Assembly: GCA_030528525.1 (NCBI GenBank)
Contig: JAUMYT010000004.1
Location: forward strand, 68,407 to 132,406
Reading direction: 5' to 3'
DNA: 64,000 nt
DNA from: Pasteurellaceae bacterium
GTDB lineage: Bacteria; Pseudomonadota; Gammaproteobacteria; Enterobacterales; Pasteurellaceae
The position numbers were made by a program, and so were the translations under genes. Numbering within the stretch: the first letter of the stretch is position 1; the number at the start of each line of letters is the position of its first letter. Under the pieces are notes generated by a model that was not told the origin of the DNA, did no database searches, and worked only from the letters and a program-made list of their open reading frames with translations. Below are positions 1 through 34,844 of the stretch, in pieces.

Positions 1-728
1 TTTCCGCATTTTGACGGAAGACTGCCTGATACCACCACAGAGCCTGCTGGCACACGTCCGTAGTGGATTTCGCCGGTTTCACGGTCATAAATTTTGGTCG
101 ATTGACCGATGAATACGCCCATTGAGATCACACAGCCGTCTTCCACAATTACGCCTTCGACGATTTCAGAACGAGCACCGATAAAGCAGTTATCGCCGAT
201 AATGGTTGGATTGGCTTGCAATGGCTCTAACACGCCGCCGATGCCCACGCCGCCAGATAAATGCACGTTTTTACCGATTTGGGCACAAGATCCAACTGTT
301 GCCCAAGTGTCCACCATTGTGCCTTCGCCCACGTATGCCCCAATGTTCACATAAGATGGCATTAATACCACATTTTTCGCAATGTAAGCCCCTTTACGCA
401 CGGTCGCTGAAGGCACCACACGGAAGCCTTCTTGTTTAAAGCGTTCTTCAGTATAGTCGGCAAATTTGAGTGGCACTTTGTCGTAGTATTTGGTTTCGGC
501 ACCGTCGATAATTTGGTTATCGTTAATGCGGAATGAGAGCAACACCGCTTTTTTCAACCATTGGTGCGTAACCCATTCGCCGTCAATTTTCTCGGCAACA
601 CGGAATTTACCGCTGTCTAAGCCTTCTAAGGCTTCTAATACCGCTGCTTTAGTTTCCGCGTCCACGCTGTTTGGGGTAATTTCCGCACGGCGTTCGAATG
701 CCGCTTCGATAATGGCTTGTAATGACAT
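1..728 (-). CDS. dapD: 2,3,4,5-tetrahydropyridine-2,6-dicarboxylate N-succinyltransferase (partial, C-terminus runs off window start)
   Basis: Minus-strand translation [19 protein letters not shown]... with hexapeptide-repeat region ([40 protein letters not shown]); plus-strand ORFs here are antisense artefacts. Confidence 0.85.
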
Positions 729-945
729 CTTTTTCTCCTGTCTTAAATGTTGAAAAATTTTGCACTTTATGAGCAAGATCTTACCCCTTGTAGGCAGATC
801 AATGTGGCAAAATGCTCGCATTGTAGCAAATCAATCGCCGATTCGCTTGAAATTGTATGAATTATCTTTGCCTATCAATTCGCTTTGACGATTTTGCACA
901 TTTCCCTTTGACTATTGGGCTGGCAATCTGTAATATTCGCACCCT

Positions 946-1470
946 ATGCAAAAAGTAAAACTCCCCCTACTGATTGACCCATATAAAGACGCTCAGCGTC
1001 GAATGGATTACGAAGGTTACCTTTCGCGTGACCAACTAAGCCGTTTGAGTGAATCTGTGGGTAATGTGCTAAGCGATGCACAAGTTACGCTGTCGTTGTA
1101 TGTTGATCCACAAAAACTGACCGTGATTAAAGGCACGGCAACGGTGGACGTGGAATTAGACTGCCAACGTTGCGGTAACCCATTTTCGCACACACTGGAC
1201 TGTACATTCTGTTTCAGCCCTGTGAAAAATATGGAGCAAGCGGACGAATTACCTGAAATTTACGACCCAATTGAGCTCAATGAATTTGGCGAAGTAAGTT
1301 TGCTGGAAATGGTGGAAGATGAATTTATTATCTCCTTGCCGTTGGTTCCAATGCATAACCCTGAACACTGTGAAGTGTCCGAGGCAGAACAAGTGTTTGG
1401 TGAATTGCCTGAAGAGCTGGCAAAAAAACCAAATCCGTTCGCCGTATTAGCTAATTTAAAGAAAAACTAG
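946..1470 (+). CDS. yceD: YceD/DUF177 family 23S rRNA accumulation protein
   Basis: 174 aa, CxxC...C pattern, sits immediately upstream of rpmF-plsX as in enterobacteria. Confidence 0.85.
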
Positions 1471-1486
1471 ATCTAGGAGAAAGCCC

Positions 1487-1657
1487 GTGGCTGTTCAACA
1501 AAATAAAAAATCTCGCTCACGTCGTGATATGCGTCGTTCACACGATGCGTTAACTACTGCTGCAGTATCAGTCGATAAAGTAACAGGTGAAACTCACTTA
1601 CGTCACCACGTTACTGCTGACGGTTACTACCGTGGTCGTAAAGTGATCAACAAATAA
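1487..1657 (+). CDS. rpmF: 50S ribosomal protein L32
   Basis: GTG start; [22 protein letters not shown]... 56 aa, classic L32 N-terminus. Confidence 0.9.
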
Positions 1658-1682
1658 TTCAAATTATCTCTCGGAGCATAAT

Positions 1683-2702
1683 TTGACCGATCTAACCCTA
1701 GCGTTAGATGTGATGGGCGGGGACTTTGGTCCCCGTATTACTATTCCTGCTACCATCACCGCATTAGAGCAGAATCCAAAGCTCAAGGTGCTGTTATTTG
1801 GTGATGAAGCCCAAATTTCCCCTTTTCTTCTTTCACTTTCTACGGATTTACGACAGCGTATCCAAATTATTCATACGGATAAAAAAGTCCCCGACCATTT
1901 GCCATTTCTGTCTGCATTACGCCAAAGTAAAGGCAGTTCAATGCGTTTGGCGTTGGAAAGTGTCGCCAACGGCGAGGCCCAAGGCTGTGTCAGTGCTGCA
2001 CATACAGGTGTTTTGATGGGGCTTGCTAAACAGCTGATTCAGCCGTTGCCCAATATCGACCGCCCTGCGTTAGTTTCACTGATTCCGACCTCCAACGGAC
2101 ATTCCACCGTAATGCTTGATTTAGGGGCAAATATCGATGCAGACAGCCAATTACTGCTGCAATTTGCCGAAATGGGCAATATTTTCGCCCAAGTGATGTT
2201 GGGCTTGGTTTTCCCGCGTCTTGCGTTGCTTAATATCGGCACGGAAGAGAACAAAGGCAATCCACAGTTACGAGAAACGCACCAACAACTCAAACAAGCT
2301 AACCATTTGAATTATCAAGGTTTTATTGAAGGAGATAAGCTGCTCAATCACTGTGCTGACGTGATTGTGTGCGATGGGTTTAGTGGCAATATCGCCCTAA
2401 AAACAATGGAAGGGGCGGTCAAAAATTTACTCTCGTTTTTCAAACCGCCAAAAGAAGAATCCAATCTCTGTCGCCATTTTAAACGTGCTGTGTTACGGCT
2501 ACTGTTTCGCCGTTATTTTCACAAGTTGCAACAAATCAATCCCGACCGTCATAATGGAGCAACATTGCTAGGATTATCTGCAGTCGTGGTGAAAAGCCAC
2601 GGTGGTGCGGGAAGTAATGCTTTTTTCCATGCGATTCAGCATGCTATTTCGCAAATTGAAAATGATATTCCTGAAAAAATGAGGCAAATGCAATCAAGCT
2701 AA
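1683..2702 (+). CDS. plsX: phosphate acyltransferase PlsX
   Basis: MTDLTLALDVMGGDFGP... aligns to E. coli PlsX N-terminus; TTG start. Confidence 0.9.
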   Translation: MTDLTLALDVMGGDFGPRITIPATITALEQNPKLKVLLFGDEAQISPFLLSLSTDLRQRIQIIHTDKKVPDHLPFLSALRQSKGSSMRLALESVANGEAQGCVSAAHTGVLMGLAKQLIQPLPNIDRPALVSLIPTSNGHSTVMLDLGANIDADSQLLLQFAEMGNIFAQVMLGLVFPRLALLNIGTEENKGNPQLRETHQQLKQANHLNYQGFIEGDKLLNHCADVIVCDGFSGNIALKTMEGAVKNLLSFFKPPKEESNLCRHFKRAVLRLLFRRYFHKLQQINPDRHNGATLLGLSAVVVKSHGGAGSNAFFHAIQHAISQIENDIPEKMRQMQSS

Positions 2703-2748
2703 ATACACAAAATGAAACGGCATCAAAGTGATGCCGTTTTACTTGCGA

Positions 2749-3153
2749 TTATTTTTTCAATAAATCACGAATTTCTGTCAGTAATTTTTCTTCTGAGCTT
2801 GGTTCTGGTGCTTTAGGCGCTTCTTCGACTGGTGCAGGTGCTTTCTTCAAGTTATTGATGAATTTCACCATCGCAAAGACTGCCATCGCAATGATTAAGA
2901 AATCAAACACATTTTGTACGAATGCACCATATTTTAACGTTACTGCTTCAGCACCATCTTGGGCTTCTTTCAATACTACAGCGAGATCTTTAAAGTCTAC
3001 ACCACCGATGAGTAAACCAATTGGCGGCATGATTACATCGTTAACTAATGATGACACGATTTTACCGAATGCACCGCCGATAATCACACCGACTGCTAAA
3101 TCAACGACATTACCTTTTACTGCGAATTCACGGAATTCTTTTAATAAGCTCAT
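2749..3153 (-). CDS. mscL: large-conductance mechanosensitive channel
   Basis: 134 aa, [37 protein letters not shown]... canonical MscL. Confidence 0.9.
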
Positions 3154-3249
3154 TACTTTCTCCTTTATGTATGGATATTTTAGGGTTCATTTTGTCCAAA
3201 ATAGACAGCGGGCGAATTATAAGCAAGTCATGCAAAATTGGTACCGATT

Positions 3250-3774
3250 TTAACTTAATTTACCAATCTTTAAGGCAAACTCACGTACTTGAGTCCAGTC
3301 GGTGTATTCATATTCTTGGCGGGTATCTGTTTCACCGCCAGTCATCTTCATGATAAAACGGATAATCAAGCGATCAAACCAACGATAACGAGGGTAGCGT
3401 AGCGCTCCTGCGAAAACCTCGACCCAATTGGGTTTCCAATCAATTTTCTCCAGCAGTTTACGTGTATAAATATTTGTTGTCGGTGTATTGCGATTAGCTT
3501 TACGAGCAGTAAGATTCACACTAAAAAAGGCAGAATGTCTTTGATTAAGCAAGGCGGAATGCATACTAATAAACTGTGCCAAAACCGGTGAAAAGTGACC
3601 ATACCGAATCGATGCACCAATAACAATCCGATCAAATTCAGCAAGCTGATTTGATGACATATTGATATGATCACGCAAGCAAAACAATTCTACATTCTCA
3701 AGATGTGAAGCAATATACTCTGCAATTTTTTGGGTCTGCCCGTCGTAGGTAAGATAGAAAATAGCGGTTCTCAT
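3250..3774 (-). CDS. hemG: menaquinone-dependent protoporphyrinogen oxidase (flavodoxin-like)
   Basis: 174 aa, strong match in memory to E. coli HemG (VIGASIRYGH..., ALRYPRYRW...). Confidence 0.85.
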   Translation of the reverse strand: MRTAIFYLTYDGQTQKIAEYIASHLENVELFCLRDHINMSSNQLAEFDRIVIGASIRYGHFSPVLAQFISMHSALLNQRHSAFFSVNLTARKANRNTPTTNIYTRKLLEKIDWKPNWVEVFAGALRYPRYRWFDRLIIRFIMKMTGGETDTRQEYEYTDWTQVREFALKIGKLS

Positions 3775-3846
3775 AATATCTGATACATAAAAATTATCAT
3801 TTTAGCTGAATTCCAACGAAGTTTAAATGAAACTAGTAAGTACAGT

Positions 3847-4458
3847 CTAAGATAATATACCCTCTAATTTCAATTTAGCTGCAAATCGCTGTGTGAGTGT
3901 TTGCTCAGCTTGCTCAAATTGGGTGGGATTGATGCCAAGCAATAACTCGATTTTCTCGCCAAATTGTTGTTCGATGATTTCAATGTCCCAATCGGTGATC
4001 CAATGTTGTAGGCTGTGAAATTGGTCGTAGTCGCACTGCAAGCGATAAGGTTGGCGTAACACTTTGCGTTCGGTTTGCAGCTGTGCTAAGGCTTGTTGCA
4101 CACCGTTGCCGCAGGCTCGCACCAATCCGCCTGTGCCAAGCAAAATGCCGCCGTAATATCGCACCACCACCGCACTGATTTCGCCCAAGCCACTGCCAAG
4201 CAAATAGTTCAACATTGGTTTGCCTGCCGTGCCAGACGGCTCGCCATCATCAGAAAAGCCGTATTGCTGTGAATCGGTTGGCGAACCTGCCACGCAAGCC
4301 CAGCAATGGTGGCGAGCCTGCGGGTGCAGGGCTTTGATTTCCGCCCAAAAGGCTTTGGCTTGTTCTAAGCCTTCGGTGTGGCGAAGGTAGGTAATGAAGC
4401 GACTTTTTTTGATCTCTTCTTCAAAAATGATGCCAGCGGCAGGGATAAAAAATTGCAT
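3847..4458 (-). CDS. yigZ: IMPACT/YigZ family protein
   Basis: 203 aa, EEIKKSRFIT..., GFSDDGEPSGTAGKPML... YigZ signature. Confidence 0.8.
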   Translation of the reverse strand: MQFFIPAAGIIFEEEIKKSRFITYLRHTEGLEQAKAFWAEIKALHPQARHHCWACVAGSPTDSQQYGFSDDGEPSGTAGKPMLNYLLGSGLGEISAVVVRYYGGILLGTGGLVRACGNGVQQALAQLQTERKVLRQPYRLQCDYDQFHSLQHWITDWDIEIIEQQFGEKIELLLGINPTQFEQAEQTLTQRFAAKLKLEGILS

Positions 4459-4625
4459 AATTTGGCGTTTTTAGTAAATAAAATGTGAAAATTTTGTGAT
4501 CTTGTTCGTGTTTTTGACATAAAAAATTTGCCAAGTCGGCAAAAGTCGAGTATATCTATAAACGTTTTTTTGTAAGAAAACGACTTACTTATTCTATATT
4601 CTTTCCTGATAAGAGGATCTATTAG

Positions 4626-5588
4626 ATGAAAAAATTACTCAAACTTTCATTAGCCGCCACTTTAGCGACCACCGCATTTTCAGCTCAAGCGAACGAGCAA
4701 TTTATTACCATTGGTACAGGCGGTCAAACTGGCGTTTACTATGTCGTGGGTCAATCGGTTTGTCAATTAGTGAACCGTGATACGGCGAAAACGAAAGTGA
4801 AATGTAACGCCCCTTCCACAGGCGGTTCGGTGGCGAACTTAAACTCAATCGCCGCTAAAGAAATGGATATGGGTATTGCTCAATCAGACTGGCAATATCA
4901 CGCCTACAACGGCTCTAGCTCCTTTGAAGGCAAGAAAAACGACAAACTCCGTGCGATTTTCTCTATTCACCCAGAGCCGTTTACGGTAATGGCTCGCACC
5001 GATGCGAACGTGAAAACGTTTGATGATTTGAAAGGTAAACGTGTCAATGTGGGTGACCCAGGTTCAGGTACACGTGCAACAATGAATGTAATTTTGAACG
5101 CAAAAGGTTGGACAGACAAAGAGTTCAAAGTGGCGTCTGAATTAAAACCTGCGGAAATGGCATCAGTTATGTGTGATAACAACTTAGATGCGATCACTTA
5201 CAATGTAGGTCACCCAAATGGTGCGTTGAAAGAAGCGGCGGCCTCTTGTGATGCTCACTTAGTGCCAGTCACAGGCGAAGCGATCGATAAATTAGTGGCA
5301 GATCACGCTTACTATGCAAAAGCGACTATCCCAGGTGGCTTATATAAAGGCACCGACAACCCAGTTGACAGCTTCGGTGTGTATGCGACTTTAGTGACAT
5401 CGAGCGATGTGTCTGAAGAGAAAGTGTATGCGGTGGTGAAAGCGGTATTCGATAACTTCGACCGTTTCAAACGTTTACACCCAGCCTTTGAAAATCTCAA
5501 ACAAGAAGAGATGATCAAAAATGCGTTATCAGCTCCATTACACGACGGTGCGGTACGTTACTACAAAGAGAAAGGTTGGATTAAATAA
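4626..5588 (+). CDS. TRAP transporter solute-binding protein, TAXI family
   Basis: 320 aa with signal peptide; ITIGTGGQTGVYY motif typical of TAXI receptors; followed by fused TRAP permease. Confidence 0.85.
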   Translation: MKKLLKLSLAATLATTAFSAQANEQFITIGTGGQTGVYYVVGQSVCQLVNRDTAKTKVKCNAPSTGGSVANLNSIAAKEMDMGIAQSDWQYHAYNGSSSFEGKKNDKLRAIFSIHPEPFTVMARTDANVKTFDDLKGKRVNVGDPGSGTRATMNVILNAKGWTDKEFKVASELKPAEMASVMCDNNLDAITYNVGHPNGALKEAAASCDAHLVPVTGEAIDKLVADHAYYAKATIPGGLYKGTDNPVDSFGVYATLVTSSDVSEEKVYAVVKAVFDNFDRFKRLHPAFENLKQEEMIKNALSAPLHDGAVRYYKEKGWIK

Positions 5589-5607
5589 TTCTCTTTCTTA
5601 AAACAAC

Positions 5608-5667
5608 GTAGGGTGGGCATTCTGCCCACCGTTACGATCTCTTGGTGGGCAAGAATGCCCACCCTAC
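5608..5667. repeat. Family C bipartite palindrome (GTAGG-hairpin...hairpin-CCTAC), copy 1
   Basis: gtagggtgggcattctgcccacc ... ggtgggcaagaatgcccaccctac. Confidence 0.8.
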
Positions 5668-5733
5668 ATTTTTTCGGCATTTTGCCCTGTCGGTTTATTA
5701 ACAAGCGGTGATTTAAGGCAAGCAAAACTTGAT

Positions 5734-5781
5734 GTAGGGACGTACTGCGTACGTCCTTGGGCGTATGCAATACGCCCCTAC
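5734..5781. repeat. Family C palindrome, copy 2
   Basis: gtagggacgtactgcgtacgtcc...gggcgtatgcaatacgcccctac. Confidence 0.8.
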
Positions 5782-5838
5782 GGATAGAGATATTGCTTAA
5801 AAATCCGACCGTTTGTTTTCTCATTTTTAGGAATTGCA

Positions 5839-8481
5839 ATGTCCACACAAGAAAAAACAGTTACCACCGCAAGTTACGACGACTTGCAAGATATGGTGGC
5901 GTCAAACGATTCGGGGGGAAGAAACCCACGTGGGTTTACCAAAAAACTGATCGTTGGCGTGGCAATTTTATGGTCGCTTTTTCAACTCTATTACACTTCG
6001 CCATTTCCATTTTGGCTACAAGAAGTGATCCGCAATGCAGGCATTGATTTGAATGTCGTGATTGATGATACCAAAGCACGCTCCATTCACTTAGCCTTTG
6101 CACTCTTCTTGGCGTATCTCTCATTCCCTGCATTTGCGAACTCGCCAAAACATCGAGTGCCTTATCAAGACTGGATCTTCGCCACCCTTGGGGCATTTTT
6201 AGGAGCGTATTACATCTTCTTCTACGAAGGCTTAGTGACCCGTTTTGGTGCTCCGAATACGCAAGATATTATCGCGGGCTGTTTAGGCGTATTGTTATTA
6301 CTTGAAGCCTGTCGCCGTAGTCTTGGATTACCGCTCGTGATTATCGCTGGCGTGTTCTTGTTGTATAACTACTTCGGGCAATTCTTGCCGACCGATTGGA
6401 TTATCAGCCATCGTTCAGGCTCGCTCTCGCAAATTGTGAACCAACAATGGATCACCACCGAAGGCGTATTCGGCGTGGCGTTGGGCGTTTCGACTAAATA
6501 TGTGTTCTTGTTCGTGTTATTCGGTGCATTATTGGATAAAGCAGGGGCTGGCAACTACTTCATCAAAACTGCTTTTGCCTATTTAGGGCACTTTAGTGGC
6601 GGGCCAGGTAAAGCAGCAGTCGTTTCATCGGGTTTAACAGGATTAGTATCGGGTTCATCTATTGCCAACGTGGTGACCACAGGCACTTTCACTATTCCAA
6701 TGATGAAACGTGTTGGCTTGAATGCCGAAAAAGCTGGGGCGGTGGAAGTTGCTTCATCAGTAAACGGACAAATTATGCCGCCAGTAATGGGGGCAGCTGC
6801 GTTTCTGATGATTGAATACGTCAATATGCCGTACAGCCAGCTGATTACTCACGCTTTCTTGCCTGCGTTCATTTCCTATATCGCCTTGGTGTATATCGTG
6901 CATTTGGAAGCTCAAAAACTTGGTTTGAAAGGCTTAGAGCGTACCGATCCGCCAAATCCAATTTATGTGACGTTAATTCGTGCCTTAGCGAGTTTCCTAG
7001 TGATTTGCATCGTCTATTTCGCAATGGAATTTAGCTTAGGTTGGATTAAAACGGCCGCACCTGATTATGCCTTCTCGATTGTGGCAGCCTTGTTAGCGGT
7101 GGTTTACCTTGCACTCATTCGCCGTGTGGCAAGTTTCCCTGATTTAGAACCAGACGATCCAAACGCACAAATTGTCAAATTGCCGTCCACCAAACCAACG
7201 GTAAACGCAGGCTTGCATTATTTATTGCCTGTGGTGGTGTTGATGTGGTGTTTGATGATCGAACGTATGTCGCCAGGGCTTTCTGCCTTTTGGGGAACAA
7301 TGGCGTTAGCGGTGATTTTGATTACCCAGCGTCCATTGCTCGCCTTCTTCCGCAACGAAAACAGCAATAAATTTGCTCTAGCTAAACAAGGCTTGAACGA
7401 GCTGAAAGACGGCTTGGAAGCAGGGGCAAGAAATATGATCGGCATCGGGATTGCCACCGCAACCGCTGGGATCATCGTAGGTGTGGTTGCCTTAACGGGC
7501 TTTGGTGTACAGCTTTCTGGCATTATCGAAATGCTCTCAATGGGCAACATTTTGTTGATGCTGATCTTAGTCGCCATTTTCAGCTTGATTTTAGGAATGG
7601 GCTTGCCAACCACCGCAAACTACATCGTGGTGTCTTCGTTGATGGCATTAGTGATTGTCGAAATCGGCAAGCAAAACGGCTTAATTGTGCCGTTAATTGC
7701 GGTGCATTTGTTCGTGTTCTACTTCGGTATTATGGCGGACGTGACCCCACCTGTCGGCTTGGCGTCCTTTGCCGCCGCAGCCATTTCGGGCGGTAGCCCA
7801 ATCAAAACTGGGGTACAAGCGTTCTATTACAGCTTGCGAACTGCCGTGTTGCCGTTCCTGTTTATTTTCAACACCGACTTGTTGTTGATTGATGTCGGCT
7901 GGGCGAAAGGCTTACTGGTGTTCGTCACGGCGACCATCGGGATTTTGGTCTTTACCGCCGTCACAATGGGCTATTTCTTCACTCGCAATAAATGGTGGGA
8001 AGGGGTAGTTTTATTGCTCGCCGCCTTTACGCTATTCCGCCCAGGGTTCTTTATGGAACACCTCTCGCCAACGGCACGCCACGTTGAGCCAGCCCAATTA
8101 GTGCAAGAGCTTGAACGCACCCCAGCAGGGCAGAATTTAATGCTCAAAGTATCAGGGCTAAATCCATACGGCAAAGAGATCGAATTTTACTCGCAACTCA
8201 TTGTGCCGGAAGGCAATTCGGGCGAAGAACGGGTGAAAGCACTCGGCTTACTGTTGTTAGACACAGGCGAGAAAATCGAGATTGACGGCAAGCCGTCACC
8301 GAAGATTATCATCGACAACGTGGAAATCGACTCGCCAGCGGCAAAAGCAGGGTTGAACTGGGATCAAGTGCTGCTAGACGTAGCTCTGCCACGGGATTCC
8401 TTACCAAAAGAGCTGATGTTCATTCCAGCGTTATTGCTGATTTTGGGCGTGGCGTGGAATCAACGTCGCCGCCGCAAGTAG
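5839..8481 (+). CDS. TRAP transporter fused permease (TAXI type) with C-terminal extension
   Basis: 880 aa polytopic membrane protein downstream of TAXI receptor gene. Confidence 0.85.
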   Translation: MSTQEKTVTTASYDDLQDMVASNDSGGRNPRGFTKKLIVGVAILWSLFQLYYTSPFPFWLQEVIRNAGIDLNVVIDDTKARSIHLAFALFLAYLSFPAFANSPKHRVPYQDWIFATLGAFLGAYYIFFYEGLVTRFGAPNTQDIIAGCLGVLLLLEACRRSLGLPLVIIAGVFLLYNYFGQFLPTDWIISHRSGSLSQIVNQQWITTEGVFGVALGVSTKYVFLFVLFGALLDKAGAGNYFIKTAFAYLGHFSGGPGKAAVVSSGLTGLVSGSSIANVVTTGTFTIPMMKRVGLNAEKAGAVEVASSVNGQIMPPVMGAAAFLMIEYVNMPYSQLITHAFLPAFISYIALVYIVHLEAQKLGLKGLERTDPPNPIYVTLIRALASFLVICIVYFAMEFSLGWIKTAAPDYAFSIVAALLAVVYLALIRRVASFPDLEPDDPNAQIVKLPSTKPTVNAGLHYLLPVVVLMWCLMIERMSPGLSAFWGTMALAVILITQRPLLAFFRNENSNKFALAKQGLNELKDGLEAGARNMIGIGIATATAGIIVGVVALTGFGVQLSGIIEMLSMGNILLMLILVAIFSLILGMGLPTTANYIVVSSLMALVIVEIGKQNGLIVPLIAVHLFVFYFGIMADVTPPVGLASFAAAAISGGSPIKTGVQAFYYSLRTAVLPFLFIFNTDLLLIDVGWAKGLLVFVTATIGILVFTAVTMGYFFTRNKWWEGVVLLLAAFTLFRPGFFMEHLSPTARHVEPAQLVQELERTPAGQNLMLKVSGLNPYGKEIEFYSQLIVPEGNSGEERVKALGLLLLDTGEKIEIDGKPSPKIIIDNVEIDSPAAKAGLNWDQVLLDVALPRDSLPKELMFIPALLLILGVAWNQRRRRK

Positions 8482-11681: not shown

Positions 11682-12431
11682 TTAATCAAAAAGCACATAA
11701 GCAATAGCGATAAGTGCACCAGCACCTACAAGAAGTGGCAAGAAACGGGCGAACTGGCAAGGAGAGCAGTTATCCGATTTATTGCAGGCTTGTGGTGTTG
11801 TTTCAGTGTTTTTTACTTTTTTACTGGTGTAAATCGTGGCTTCGTTGAAGGCTTTTTCAAATTCCTGAGCGGTGTTTTTCATCGCTAATTTGGTTGATGT
11901 GCGATACATTGGTTTGCCTTCAAATTTACTTAGATCTACATCAATATCAGTGGCAATAAACACTAAATCAGCAGCTTGTACTTCTTCTGCTGTAATTAAA
12001 TTGTTTGCACCAATTTGCCCTCGGGTTTCAATTTTGATATTCCAACCTTGGGTTTTGGCGTAATTAGAAATGGCTTCTGCAGACATAAAGGTTTGTGCTA
12101 CGCCCGTTGGACAAGCGGTTACTGCTACAATGTTTTTAGTTTTGCCATGATTTTCTAGTGGTGTGTCTTCTACGTGCAGCGGGGCTGCATCGGCGATCGC
12201 TTGCTGTAATGTAGTTTCAGGTTGGTTTAACGCTTGCTCAAGATCGACAATAGCCCCTTTTCTACCAATAAGGTTAGCTGGAACGCTTGGTTCAAACAGT
12301 AGCACAATATCAGCTTGTTCGGTTGCAACAATTTGGTGTTGTTGTTGGGTTGCTGCGTTTGTTAGTGCTTGTTCAACGAGAAATTGGCGAGCATTGCCAA
12401 GTTGTGCCGGAAAAACGAAAGAAATGTTCAT
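11682..12431 (-). pseudogene. fruA: PTS fructose-specific IIB'-IIB fragment (truncated fruA-like, ends inside first TM helix)
   Basis: 249 aa matches FruA residues 1-~215 (KNIVAVTACPTGVAQTFMSAEAI) then stops after one TM segment; full FruA IIC domain (~350 aa) missing. Confidence 0.5.
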
Positions 12432-12776
12432 GAGAAAGTCCTATATGTGTCAAAATAAATGATATTGCGAGGAGTGAGTTATCCTGTTTACGATTTGCAA
12501 TACCGATGAAATGGTTTGCATGGTTAAGTTTAACGCATTCAGCAGGCTGAATGTGGGTTTAAATGATAAATTTAGCCTAGCGACCACACAGTTTACAATG
12601 AGTTTACTGTGTGGCACTAGGGCTTGTAGTACGCCCTCAAGGTTGAGAAACGTTTCATGAACACCCGTTTAGTATGCTACATTTTCAATGCCCTTAGCCT
12701 GTAATCGAGCAATGACAACAGTGTATAACGGGAGCAAGGAACATTTCTTCAACGCTCAAGTTCTTGGCGATTGGGT

Positions 12777-31020: not shown

Positions 31021-31063
31021 CAAGGGGGCAGATTTTTGAAAAAATCTGCAAAATCTTTTTGGG
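31021..31063. repeat. Family A repeat
   Basis: caagggggcagatttttgaaaaaatctgcaaaatctttttggg, directly after rpiA stop. Confidence 0.7.
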
Positions 31064-31170
31064 ACGTATGCAATACGTCCCTACATTAGATGATGATCGA
31101 AAAATGGGAAAAATCCCCGTTTGTAGGGGCGTATTGCATACGCCCACGGACGCAAACATTGCGTCCCTAC
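31061..31170. repeat. Family C compound element (three hairpins framed by GTAGG/CCTAC)
   Basis: gggacgtatgcaatacgtccctac...gtaggggcgtattgcatacgccc acggacgcaaacattgcgtccctac. Confidence 0.75.
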
Positions 31171-31205
31171 ATTTATAACGTACAAACACAACATTCGGAG
31201 CTATT

Positions 31206-32438: not shown

Positions 32439-32507
32439 GGCTTAAGCAATTCTATTGTTAGATAGAACACAATAGTATTGCTTTGATTTTAACCATTTTT
32501 GAATGGA

Positions 32508-32540
32508 AAAAGGCACTTGTTATATGCAAGTGCCTGTTTG
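32508..32540. terminator. Bidirectional hairpin between serA and island gene
   Basis: aaaaaGGCACTTGttatatgCAAGTGCCtgttt: 8-bp stem flanked by A-run and T-run. Confidence 0.5.
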
Positions 32541-32545
32541 AATCA

Positions 32546-33277
32546 TTAAATGAATTTAATACAATCTAACTCTTCTAGATAAATCTTATATAACTCCATA
32601 AATATCTTATCAATAAGAATCAATAGTGAGAACCATATAAAATAATTCTCATACGGATAATCTTCTTTTACTAGTGTATTCAATGATGGTAAGTTCTGCT
32701 GATAAGATCTTGTATTGTGAGCAATTCTATTTCTATTTTTATAGAAACTATCTTCATACTGTTGTTTTAAGTGTTCACCTAGAATATTCTTACAATCAAT
32801 CGCAAAGTAAGATTCCTTAATTGTTTTCCAATAATCTAAATAGGTTGTATAGCCTCTTTGAGACCAATAATAAAAAAGGCTATTCTCGACAGTATTACTG
32901 ATATTGCTATAAGATAATATCTCCTTTTTTAGTTTATTAAAGGTGTTTACAAAATCAAAATTAGGTGATGTTATTTTAATTTGTTCTATAAGGAATTTAT
33001 ATACATCATTTTTATCCTTATACTGTGAGCAACCAGATTTAGACAGGTTGTTATTTAAGAATGTATATCTAAAATTATGGTTGTTGTTTGCCATTTCCCA
33101 TAGGATACATTTTATTTTCTGTTCTTGTGCTCCAGCCATTTTAATAAGAATAGACTGCAGTATATAATCTGATAAGGGATGGGTTTCAATGCCATGTTTT
33201 ATATTTTTAACCGATGATACTCCCTCATTCAGGATATCTGAAACAGGGGATAATATAAATTTAATATTTTGGTTCAT
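32546..33277 (-). CDS. Hypothetical protein with HEPN-like Rx4H motif (RNRIAHN), possible Abi_2/AbiD-like; in low-GC island
   Basis: 243 aa ORF, about 25-30% GC by hand count on samples; motif ...YKNRNRIAHNTRSY...; 17-nt overlap with upstream DUF262 gene. Confidence 0.6.
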   Translation of the reverse strand: MNQNIKFILSPVSDILNEGVSSVKNIKHGIETHPLSDYILQSILIKMAGAQEQKIKCILWEMANNNHNFRYTFLNNNLSKSGCSQYKDKNDVYKFLIEQIKITSPNFDFVNTFNKLKKEILSYSNISNTVENSLFYYWSQRGYTTYLDYWKTIKESYFAIDCKNILGEHLKQQYEDSFYKNRNRIAHNTRSYQQNLPSLNTLVKEDYPYENYFIWFSLLILIDKIFMELYKIYLEELDCIKFI

Positions 33278-34487
33278 TTAAATACTCCCCATAAATTTCA
33301 ATTGATCGACTAATTCTCTTTCTAAGGTGTGTAAGCCCATTGGGTGAACGACTATGGCGTTCATCATTTTTCATGTCATTAATACAATTTTCTATTTCGT
33401 TTCTTATTTCATAATTTTTATCATAGTTGATAGAGCAACCATCAAGTAAAATATAATATATAGCCCCAAACAAATACATATCTAAATCAATTATTGATTT
33501 GAATTCTTTATTATCTGCTAACAAAGTAGAAAGATAATTTTTTAAAGCGGACATTCGGATTATATGATTGTTATTTTCGATTAATGGCAGAGAATCTCCA
33601 AATTTACTATGTTCTTTCTCTGATTCTTCATTTTGCTCTGAGCAGCAAGAGATCACAGAATATATATACTCTTCGTAGTATTTCTCCATTTGAGATTTTT
33701 GACCTCTAGCAACCTTTTTAATATCATTACAATATTTATATTCGGATAACAACGACAAATATCGAATAAAGTCCGCTTTGCTTGGGTTACCATTAATGGT
33801 TAACTTATATTCTTTAGTAAATTCTGGATCAAAAAATGGTTGTAAATCCTCAACTAAATAATAAAGAGAAGCCCTGCTTTCTTGTGGAAGTAAAGGTTTT
33901 CCTTGGATATTTATTTCTTTAAAAACAGAAGCATAATATTTTTGGTGTGCTTTTTGATCGTTATTATCTGGAACTAAATAGCAAAAGCCTAAATAATGCT
34001 TGTCGAAAAAATCATCCTCTAGTTGTAATGATAATTCTTTATATTCTTTTCCTATCTTCGTGATAATTTGCTCTTTTGTTTTCCCTTTTTCCTGCAACAC
34101 CGCAAAACGCCATTCTAGGATATTATCGATCCTATCGTCAGGATCGTCATTTTCATCAATTGTACTGTCGTATAGTTCTATATTATCTGATGATTTCTTA
34201 AAACGTTCTTTATCAGGAAATATACCCAAATAAGCGAGTAAGATACTGGTAAGTCTTTGCTGACCGTCGATAATAAGATTGACATTTTCTCCAGATTCAT
34301 CTCTGAATGAGCCAATCGTGACAGGAGGGATAAAATGCTCTTTTCTAAAGGAGTTTATTAATGTGCTCACTTTGGGTTCATCCCATACAAAATATCGCTG
34401 ATATTTGGGTAATAATAAATTTTTTGATAAAATTAGATCGAGCCAATGTTTTAGAGAATATTCTCCATAATAAACTTTATTTCCCAT
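33261..34487 (-). CDS. DUF262 (ParB/Srx-like, GmrS-type N-terminal domain) protein without DUF1524 HNH domain; in low-GC island
   Basis: 408 aa; KYQRYFVWDEPKVSTLINS...NLIIDGQQRLTSILLAYLG matches the DUF262 DGQQR signature; C-terminal 170 aa unassigned. Confidence 0.7.
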   Translation of the reverse strand: MGNKVYYGEYSLKHWLDLILSKNLLLPKYQRYFVWDEPKVSTLINSFRKEHFIPPVTIGSFRDESGENVNLIIDGQQRLTSILLAYLGIFPDKERFKKSSDNIELYDSTIDENDDPDDRIDNILEWRFAVLQEKGKTKEQIITKIGKEYKELSLQLEDDFFDKHYLGFCYLVPDNNDQKAHQKYYASVFKEINIQGKPLLPQESRASLYYLVEDLQPFFDPEFTKEYKLTINGNPSKADFIRYLSLLSEYKYCNDIKKVARGQKSQMEKYYEEYIYSVISCCSEQNEESEKEHSKFGDSLPLIENNNHIIRMSALKNYLSTLLADNKEFKSIIDLDMYLFGAIYYILLDGCSINYDKNYEIRNEIENCINDMKNDERHSRSPNGLTHLRKRISRSIEIYGEYLNEPKY

Positions 34488-34744
34488 AAAATGCCTCTTG
34501 CACTGATGTTGTCATATTATGTTCTTCACTCACAATGAGAACTCTATTTTTTCATTACTTTCTCAACTCTATTATCCTCTAGTTTATTCCAACATGCTTT
34601 TCTCCATACTACTCTCTTTGGGAATTAAAGGTACACAGACGGCTAAAAGAGACACTATAGGTGCGACAGCATAGTGTTGAGCGAGTAGTGAATGGTGAAT
34701 TATTGTTTATAAAGCAAACAGTGACAACTTTCGGATTTTCAATT

Positions 34745-34760
34745 TGTGAGGCTGATCACA
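34745..34760. promoter_or_regulatory. Consensus CRP binding site
   Basis: aattTGTGAggctgaTCACAaatt: perfect TGTGA-N6-TCACA. Confidence 0.6.
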
Positions 34761-34788
34761 AATTAATATAGACTTAATTACGTGAAGA

Positions 34789-34822
34789 GGAAAAAAAATG
34801 GCTAGCCTTTTGGCTAGCCATT
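34789..34822 (-). terminator. Rho-independent terminator of dppA paralog
   Basis: Minus strand AATGGCTAGCC-aaaa-GGCTAGCCATT followed by TTTTTTTT. Confidence 0.75.
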
Positions 34823-34844
34823 TTCGTGCTATGAGAAGTTTGGA

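Follow-up and report, generated by a model that had tools for sequence, protein, structure and literature searches.

What kind of protein is encoded directly behind a DUF262 gene in a Pasteurellaceae chromosome, and what would the two gene products do together? The locus lies in a stretch of 64,000 nucleotides (nt) of contig JAUMYT010000004.1 (assembly GCA_030528525.1, Pasteurellaceae bacterium, positions 68,407 to 132,406 of the forward strand), which is called the window below. The gene in question, here termed the partner gene, occupies 32546..33277 on the minus strand (-) and encodes 243 amino acids (aa), and the DUF262/ParB-like gene in front of it occupies 33261..34487 (-) and encodes 408 aa. 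The original prediction, made from the letters of the window, was that the partner is a ribonuclease (RNase) of the HEPN/Abi_2 type. Our analysis showed that the partner is very probably a member of the HEPN superfamily, in an unclassified AbiD/Abi_2-like family, and that the two genes look like an anti-phage module of the known DUF262 plus HEPN type that was acquired horizontally. The best explanation, to which we give a probability of about 0.62, is that a single-domain HEPN RNase effector of an undescribed AbiD/AbiF-related family works with a DUF262 sensor in a self-contained, horizontally mobile module.

The partner protein is very probably a HEPN protein

The open reading frame (ORF) of the partner was confirmed at the above position, with an ATG start at 33275-33277 and the sequence GGGGAG 7 nt upstream of it. 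The predicted catalytic motif R182-N-R-I-A-H187 (32717..32734, (-)) is contained in residues 179-192 (YKNRNRIAHNTRSY). Located about 75% along the protein, residues 182-187 fall in the C-terminal third, exactly where RNRIAHN had been noticed, and they form the sole R-x4-6-H of the protein. A bare Rx4H is weak evidence alone because such strings are common in shuffles of the partner protein (R-x4-H in 9.6%, R-x4-6-H in 27%, RN..AH in 0.035%), and the significance of the motif comes from its conservation. Among 150 diverse homologues, whose alignment had a mean column identity of 29%, R182 was invariant and N183, A186, H187, and N188 were each at least 90% conserved. The pattern R[NH]xxAH was kept in 238 of the 240 family members, the exceptions being one truncated and one degenerate sequence, so that conservation among homologues, on which the original prediction hung, was borne out. 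The full-length relative P0209 (248 aa) had HRTHLVANAIAY in place of RNRxAHNxxSY while retaining the N-terminal block, and this copy, judged from its sequence, may be inactivated.

The two most conserved 10-residue segments of the family were found within residues 44-61 (KMxGxQEQKxKCxxWE) and residues 179-197 (YxxRNxxAHNxxSYQxNLP). The first of them, conserved block 1 (LIKMAGAQEQKIKCILWE; 33095..33148, (-)), is the most conserved stretch of the partner protein and contains E52-Q-K-I-K56 (33110-33124, (-)), an Ex3[KR] element of the kind that is often found upstream in HEPN domains.

According to the published definition of the superfamily, the hallmarks of HEPN are an Rx4-6H where helix 3 ends and a polar N, D, or H after the R, often accompanied by the upstream Ex3[KR], and helices 2 and 3 frequently have inserts between them (Anantharaman et al. 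2013, PMC3710099). The AlphaFold2 model of the partner, built on a 47-sequence alignment, was all-helical, as had been predicted for the 243-aa chain, with a predicted local distance difference test score of 86 and a predicted template-modelling score of 0.86. In the model, a long helix (30-65) carrying E52 and K56 is followed by a helical insert (67-151) and by helix 168-187, whose C-terminal end is RNRIAH; behind the motif come a loop with short helices and then a long helix (212-241). The position of the motif thus agreed with the HEPN definition as judged by the order of secondary structure, not by coordinates. In addition, the R was followed directly by a polar N in R182-N183-x-x-A186-H187, and E52 was found within the Ex3K of the most conserved block. 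The best specific matches of the helical-bundle model were solved HEPN domains, and the protein may thus have the HEPN-like fold on which the original prediction depends.

Relationship to AbiD and AbiF proteins

Comparisons with hidden Markov models gave a more divided result, and several of them weigh against the HEPN assignment. Even when matches up to E 10 were admitted (E <= 10), the partner protein of the window gave none in Pfam, PADLOC, or NCBIfam; the one NCBIfam listing, a GatC model at E 0.15, was far under its cut-off. The family consensus sequence matched no HEPN model, and its Pfam matches were spurious only. Foldseek of the partner model against the PDB returned nothing and no HEPN structure, and when the profiles of both families were searched against PDB sequences, all matches were irrelevant. 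HEPN models were matched by individual members of the family, but every one of these matches was under the curated thresholds, and Mov-10_helical (11 members) and GOLD_2 (7 members) recurred as well. Since such unrelated families recur too, recurrence of matches alone is no proof.

Among 150 members, Pfam gave Abi_2 for 12 (best 3.4e-5), HEPN_MAE_28990 for 4 (best 1.9e-4), and HEPN_RiboL-PSP for 3, and PADLOC gave AbiD for 52 (best 2.6e-6). Single members matched the PADLOC models of PD-T4-2_B, CARF_HEPN, Csm6, and Csx1, and two members matched Cas13a. All examined HEPN alignments included the motif. For example, residues 38-192 of P0195 were aligned with positions 41-181 of 184 of Abi_2, residues 184-256 of P0238 with positions 174-239 of 277 of AbiD, residues 89-207 of P0223 with positions 60-171 of 191 of RiboL-PSP, and residues 124-204 of P0195 with positions 61-145 of 168 of PD-T4-2_B. 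The curated threshold of Abi_2 (25.6 bits) was not reached, the three relatives examined individually scoring 11-17.6 bits. Swt1 and LsoA/RnlA, which had also been proposed for comparison, were not matched by the window protein in Pfam at E <= 10 and were absent from the 25 most-matched families listed for 47 and 150 relatives. The expected similarity to Abi_2 therefore appeared in the relatives, below threshold, while the window protein itself and the Swt1 and LsoA comparisons gave nothing.

Because of these sub-threshold scores and the recurrence of unrelated families, an alignment of real Abi_2 proteins was built from AbiF of phage phiC2 and 17 annotated plasmid "Abi family proteins" (18 in total), in which E87, R202, N203, and H207 were invariant. 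When the partner family was compared with these 18 proteins by hhalign, RNRcAHN was placed opposite RNxCAHh (~lY~hRNRcAHNt~SYQ~Nl with ~l~~~RN~CAHh~Rl~n~~) with a score of 37.4 and a P value of 1.6e-4. The controls were lower, at 19.0 for the reversed profile, 16.8 for an unrelated DUF262 profile, and at most 23.5 for 30 column shuffles. Also to be counted among the adverse points, the confident region covered 21 columns only, with a probability of 51%. In a relaxed alignment of low confidence, E52 and K56 fell opposite the invariant E87 and R91 of Abi_2, and the global mode gave no alignment of the two profiles. The commonest form of the family motif, RNRCAH, is of the same form as RNQCAH of Clostridioides difficile AbiF, which occurs as a family variant too, and the likeness to AbiD/AbiF strings that had been pointed out before was thus upheld. 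By sequence, the nearest detectable relatives of the partner are the AbiD/AbiF (Abi_2) proteins. The partner is nevertheless Abi_2-like and not a member of Abi_2, because the scores stay below the curated threshold and only the catalytic block is reliably similar. Of the "HEPN/Abi_2-type RNase" first proposed, the HEPN part is supported, Abi_2 membership has given way to Abi_2 likeness, and RNase activity is a prediction by analogy with known HEPN proteins.

The DUF262 gene and the partner gene form a pair

The N-terminal half of the 408-aa neighbour is a GmrSD_N domain (Pfam GmrSD_N/DUF262, residues 21-209, E 1.4e-24), and its C-terminal half is helical. Its DGQQR motif (34254-34268, (-)) is invariant and corresponds to the motif that is required for nucleotide hydrolysis and defence in GmrSD-like proteins. 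BrxU and SspE were the best structural matches of the protein. Against the PADLOC model of NsnA it was aligned almost end to end (residues 17-403 with positions 58-383 of 385, 9.3e-14), and its match to PD-T4-2_A was partial, around DGQQR (residues 26-83, 3.3e-8). No nuclease domain, DUF1524/HNH or other, was found in it, GmrSD_N being its only Pfam domain, and its helical C-terminal half matched no nuclease fold. Since the DUF262 protein has no nuclease domain, the HEPN protein is the sole plausible catalytic effector of the pair.

The two genes overlap by 17 nt (33261..33277, (-)), with the ATG of the partner inside the last codons of the DUF262 gene, in agreement with the overlap reported earlier. 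This overlap suggests translational coupling, and because of it no intergenic space is present before the partner gene. The same arrangement is widespread: in 82 of 83 related loci with upstream DNA, a DUF262 homologue (E 1e-22 to 1e-145) was found immediately upstream on the same strand, usually with an overlap, and in most related loci the genes overlapped or were separated by gaps of at most 8 nt. Across about 80 related loci, no third conserved gene (methylase, ATPase) was found. The pairwise-identity matrices of the DUF262 proteins and the partners were correlated with r = 0.71, the maximum among permutations being 0.21. Given the adjacency in 82 of 83 loci and this correlation, the pair is inherited and diverges as a unit, and this co-diverging pairing extends across phyla.

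Proposed function and alternative explanations

According to the sensor-effector explanation, one transcript and coupled translation would give both proteins, and a complex between them would keep the RNase silent. The DUF262 protein would recognize invading, possibly modified, phage DNA, a step in which a nucleotide would be bound or hydrolysed at DGQQR, as in GmrSD, BrxU, and SspE. A conformational change would then free or activate a HEPN homodimer, whose composite site of R182, N183, and H187, aided by E52 and K56, would cut RNA in a metal-independent manner; translation would halt and the infection would be aborted. The RNase activity and its RNA target, the dimerization, the role of DUF262 as a sensor, and the function in defence are proposed here by analogy with characterized systems.

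The alternative that survives best, although we regard it as unlikely, is a toxin-antitoxin or addiction module, in which the HEPN protein is the toxin, the DUF262 protein serves as its constitutive protein antitoxin, and the RNase is freed once this antitoxin is lost or degraded. Such a module would chiefly stabilize the mobile DNA that carries it, and it is compatible with the sensor-effector explanation. The overlapping two-gene operon and the strict co-inheritance fit this alternative, HEPN toxins are commonly neutralized by cognate partners (MNT in HepT systems, RNA in AbiF), and one related locus (L007) sits among other toxin-antitoxin pairs. However, a protein of 400 aa with an invariant DGQQR and an NsnA-like, putatively DNA-binding half is far more elaborate than known antitoxins, and DUF262 is a DNA sensor or nucleoside triphosphatase (NTPase) in every characterized defence system in which it occurs (GmrSD, BrxU, SspE, Menshen, and Dazbog). 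The gene order, with the putative toxin gene downstream of its partner, is consistent with either model.

In a second alternative, the HEPN protein is catalytically inert and, as the HEPN domain of AbiA does, provides a dimerization scaffold or acts as a regulator, and the damage is done by the DUF262 protein acting as a ParB-like nuclease or NTPase. This agrees with the description of the ParB domains of such operons as deoxyribonucleases (Anantharaman et al.), but the DUF262 protein lacks DUF1524/HNH or any other nuclease domain. Moreover, R182 is invariant and N183, A186, and H187 are conserved at 90% or above in about 240 sequences, although these otherwise share about 29-47% identity; such a pattern marks a catalytic site and not a scaffold, and the same residues are needed for the toxicity of AbiF (PMC12373285). 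With R invariant and N and H near-invariant, a scaffold role is improbable.

No better placed is the idea that the partner is not a HEPN protein, but a family-specific helical protein that uses RNxxAH for binding a ligand or its partner, the HEPN-like signals being convergent. The sub-threshold level of all HEPN-model matches, the 21 columns of the confident profile-profile alignment, and the Foldseek result speak for it. Against it, four independent HEPN models were matched (Abi_2/AbiD, MAE_28990, RiboL-PSP, and PD-T4-2_B) in alignments that, where examined, included the motif; the hhalign score was far above the controls; the definition of the superfamily is matched by where the motif sits in the secondary structure and by the Ex3K; and the gene context is one already described for HEPN families. 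We therefore consider convergence a slim prospect.

Searches for an AbiF-type RNA antitoxin led to its rejection at this locus: Rfam, including the abiF motif RF03085, gave no match in the window locus at E <= 1 and none at the gathering score in 11 diverse related loci; no tandem repeats were found at the locus; and no non-coding sequence up- or downstream was conserved among divergent loci. A conventional AbiD/AbiF type III toxin-antitoxin system, in which a nearby small RNA restrains the HEPN protein and the DUF262 gene is an unrelated neighbour, is thus very hard to credit, since DUF262 is an invariable, co-diverging neighbour, even though the closest detectable relatives, AbiD and Abi_2, work with an upstream non-coding RNA.

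Returning to the sensor-effector explanation, a further step can be proposed tentatively. The AbiD/F HEPN clade has been proposed as the ancestor of Cas13. An RNase of this clade may have swapped its RNA antitoxin for an NsnA-related DUF262 NTPase, which would make the pair a minimal DNA-sensing, RNA-cleaving module; we put this at somewhat under even odds. With the same reserve, the DUF262 sensor may control its effector in trans, without the ATPase relay of Menshen. If this is true, the pair would offer a simple way to learn what DUF262 domains recognize and how the signal reaches a separate effector.

The islet, related loci, and distribution

Between serA and an oppA-like gene of the Pasteurellaceae chromosome, the pair lies in a low-GC islet of 2.4 kb (32439..34844; 30.6% GC against 45-46% in the flanks) that holds only the DUF262 and partner genes. 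No integrase or flanking direct repeats delimiting the islet were found. Upstream of the DUF262 gene, after the terminator of the oppA-like gene at 34794-34825, a promoter-like site (TTGTCA, 17 nt, AATAAT; 34699..34727, (-)) matched the consensus at 10 of 12 positions, a result of a consensus scan only that carries no evidence of function. A terminator-like hairpin with a T-run (32511..32535, (-)) follows 11 nt past the stop codon of the partner and sits between serA and the partner gene, which are convergent. REP-like palindromic elements (consensus about GGGACGTATGCAATACGTCCCTACA) were also seen in the window, three copies of alternating orientation at 31057-31171 between rpiA and serA and a further one at 5.7 kb (5733-5757). 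The pattern matched 5 times, where shuffles lead one to expect 0, and two of the matches are a single palindromic copy read on both strands.

The neighbouring genes of the pair vary from locus to locus, as is typical of defence islands and mobile elements, and included an integrase with conjugative-transposon genes, a helicase, HATPase, and PLD cluster, AAA_13, DUF3800, MNT-HEPN, VapBC, and IS66. In the metagenomic locus L007 (3076-5747), a canonical MNT-HEPN pair (NTP_transf_2 with a PF05168 HEPN) stands directly before the DUF262 gene and overlaps it; these four genes, with two different HEPN proteins, appear to be one operon, with a VapBC pair further downstream. In L002-L005 and L060 (positions 199-4662), a cluster of SNF2/DEAD helicase, HATPase_c_3, and PLDc_2 genes stands directly before the pair and IS66 after it; this relative, P0074, is widespread in gut metagenomes (more than 80 contigs), and the cluster and the pair may form a composite defence island. 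In Gilliamella mensalis (L023), a tRNA gene (6965-7038) follows the partner gene at a distance of about 230 nt, which suggests insertion at a tRNA-associated hotspot in this genome. HEPN-like RNxxAH strings, such as YAQRNAIAHG and YDYRNFSAHP, were seen in other ORFs near the module, at 5588-6046 (-) of L042, 3010-4335 (+) of L055, 2221-4599 (+) of L064, and 11703-12500 (+) of L076, which hints that HEPN genes cluster in these islands.

A search of a 90%-clustered protein collection gave 96 relatives of the partner at E <= 1e-3, and a profile search extended the family to 505 clusters at 50% identity, with no Pfam domain among the matches listed. From the profile searches of large protein collections, the best 120-150 matches were listed, and all of them were family members. 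In a scan of one genome per species, relatives were present in 158 of 185,579 species, predominantly Bacteroidota, with other carriers in Moraxella, Haemophilus, Gilliamella, Streptococcus, Lactococcus, Treponema, a cyanobacterium, Desulfobulbus, Campylobacter, and others. A subgroup of about 300-320 aa (P0060, P0061, P0066-P0068, P0116, P0120, P0151, and others) has an insertion of about 60-70 residues between the conserved blocks, for which reason the profile matches it in two stretches; the insertion is K/E-rich in P0116, the sole example read. The family was near-absent from plasmid and phage collections and rare in IMG/VR (5 loci). By tblastn, the partner had no match in the phages and one in the plasmids, a pseudogene fragment in Fusobacterium vincentii (L088, 4001-4201; NZ_CP084075.1, a replicon labelled plasmid but 2.1 Mb in size). 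This remnant comprises 67 residues of the C-terminal, motif-bearing part at 45% identity, is intergenic without an ORF of at least 100 aa, and is probably a decayed copy of a partner homologue.

Comparison with known systems

No new principle is involved in the pair, since the prediction of operons of ParB and HEPN genes dates from 2013 and one of these systems is validated. HEPN-ParB operons were described for the RiboL-PSP, the MAE_28990, and some Abi2 families, and their HEPN proteins were predicted to supply the RNase in defence or conflict systems (Anantharaman et al. 2013). RiboL-PSP and MAE_28990 are other HEPN families than that of the partner, by whose relatives they were matched rarely (3 and 4 of 150) and below threshold, and MAE_28990 operons carry a DNA methylase, whereas none is conserved here.

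The validated system, PD-T4-2 of E. coli ECOR65, consists of DUF262 and a HEPN protein of PF18735; it protects E. coli against T4, and this defence was validated also by deletion in the native strain (Vassallo et al. 2022). The pair resembles it in having two adjacent genes, for DUF262 and HEPN, without DUF1524, and presumably follows the same logic. However, PD-T4-2 has a HEPN protein of the RiboL-PSP type, while the partner is nearer to AbiD; the PD-T4-2_B model did not match the window protein and matched 1 of 150 relatives (0.0044), and the window DUF262 protein matched PD-T4-2_A only around DGQQR but NsnA over its full length.

With AbiD, AbiD1, and AbiF (Abi_2, PF07751), the partner family shares the single RNxxAH motif and the conserved upstream Ex3[KR]. 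In C. difficile AbiF, R202D or H207D in the motif RNQCAH abolishes toxicity (PMC12373285). The confident similarity is confined to about 21-70 residues around the motif, and the partner, with 243 aa, is shorter than the Abi_2 proteins of about 290-350 aa. Whereas the Abi_2 group has an upstream RNA antitoxin, none was found for the partner family, which is paired with a DUF262 protein instead.

In Menshen (NsnA-NsnB-NsnC), NsnA is a ParB-DUF262 protein with a C-terminal region, named ParBDB, that is predicted to sense DNA (Li et al.), and the DUF262 protein of the window is NsnA-like almost from end to end. The ABC ATPase NsnB and NsnC (an inactive PIN with a nuclease) have no counterpart in the window or in about 80 related loci. 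HEPN has not been reported among the effectors of Menshen, whereas the effector here is a predicted HEPN protein, so NsnA-like DUF262 sensors would combine with effectors beyond those of Menshen. GmrSD, BrxU, and SspE share the N-terminal DUF262 domain with DGQQR, but in them it is fused to a DUF1524/HNH DNA nuclease, in place of which the pair has a separate predicted RNase effector.

The architecture of the pair is thus already known, and both of its components are different, with an NsnA-like sensor and an AbiD-like effector. Current defence-system models do not detect the effector: the partner family has no Pfam, NCBIfam, or PADLOC model and is labelled "hypothetical protein" almost everywhere, and yet it spans about 500 clusters at 50% identity, at least 158 species, and many phyla. 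The pair adds an unlisted family to the DUF262 plus HEPN class of candidate anti-phage systems and, beside PD-T4-2, would be a second, sequence-independent example of DUF262 control over a separate effector.

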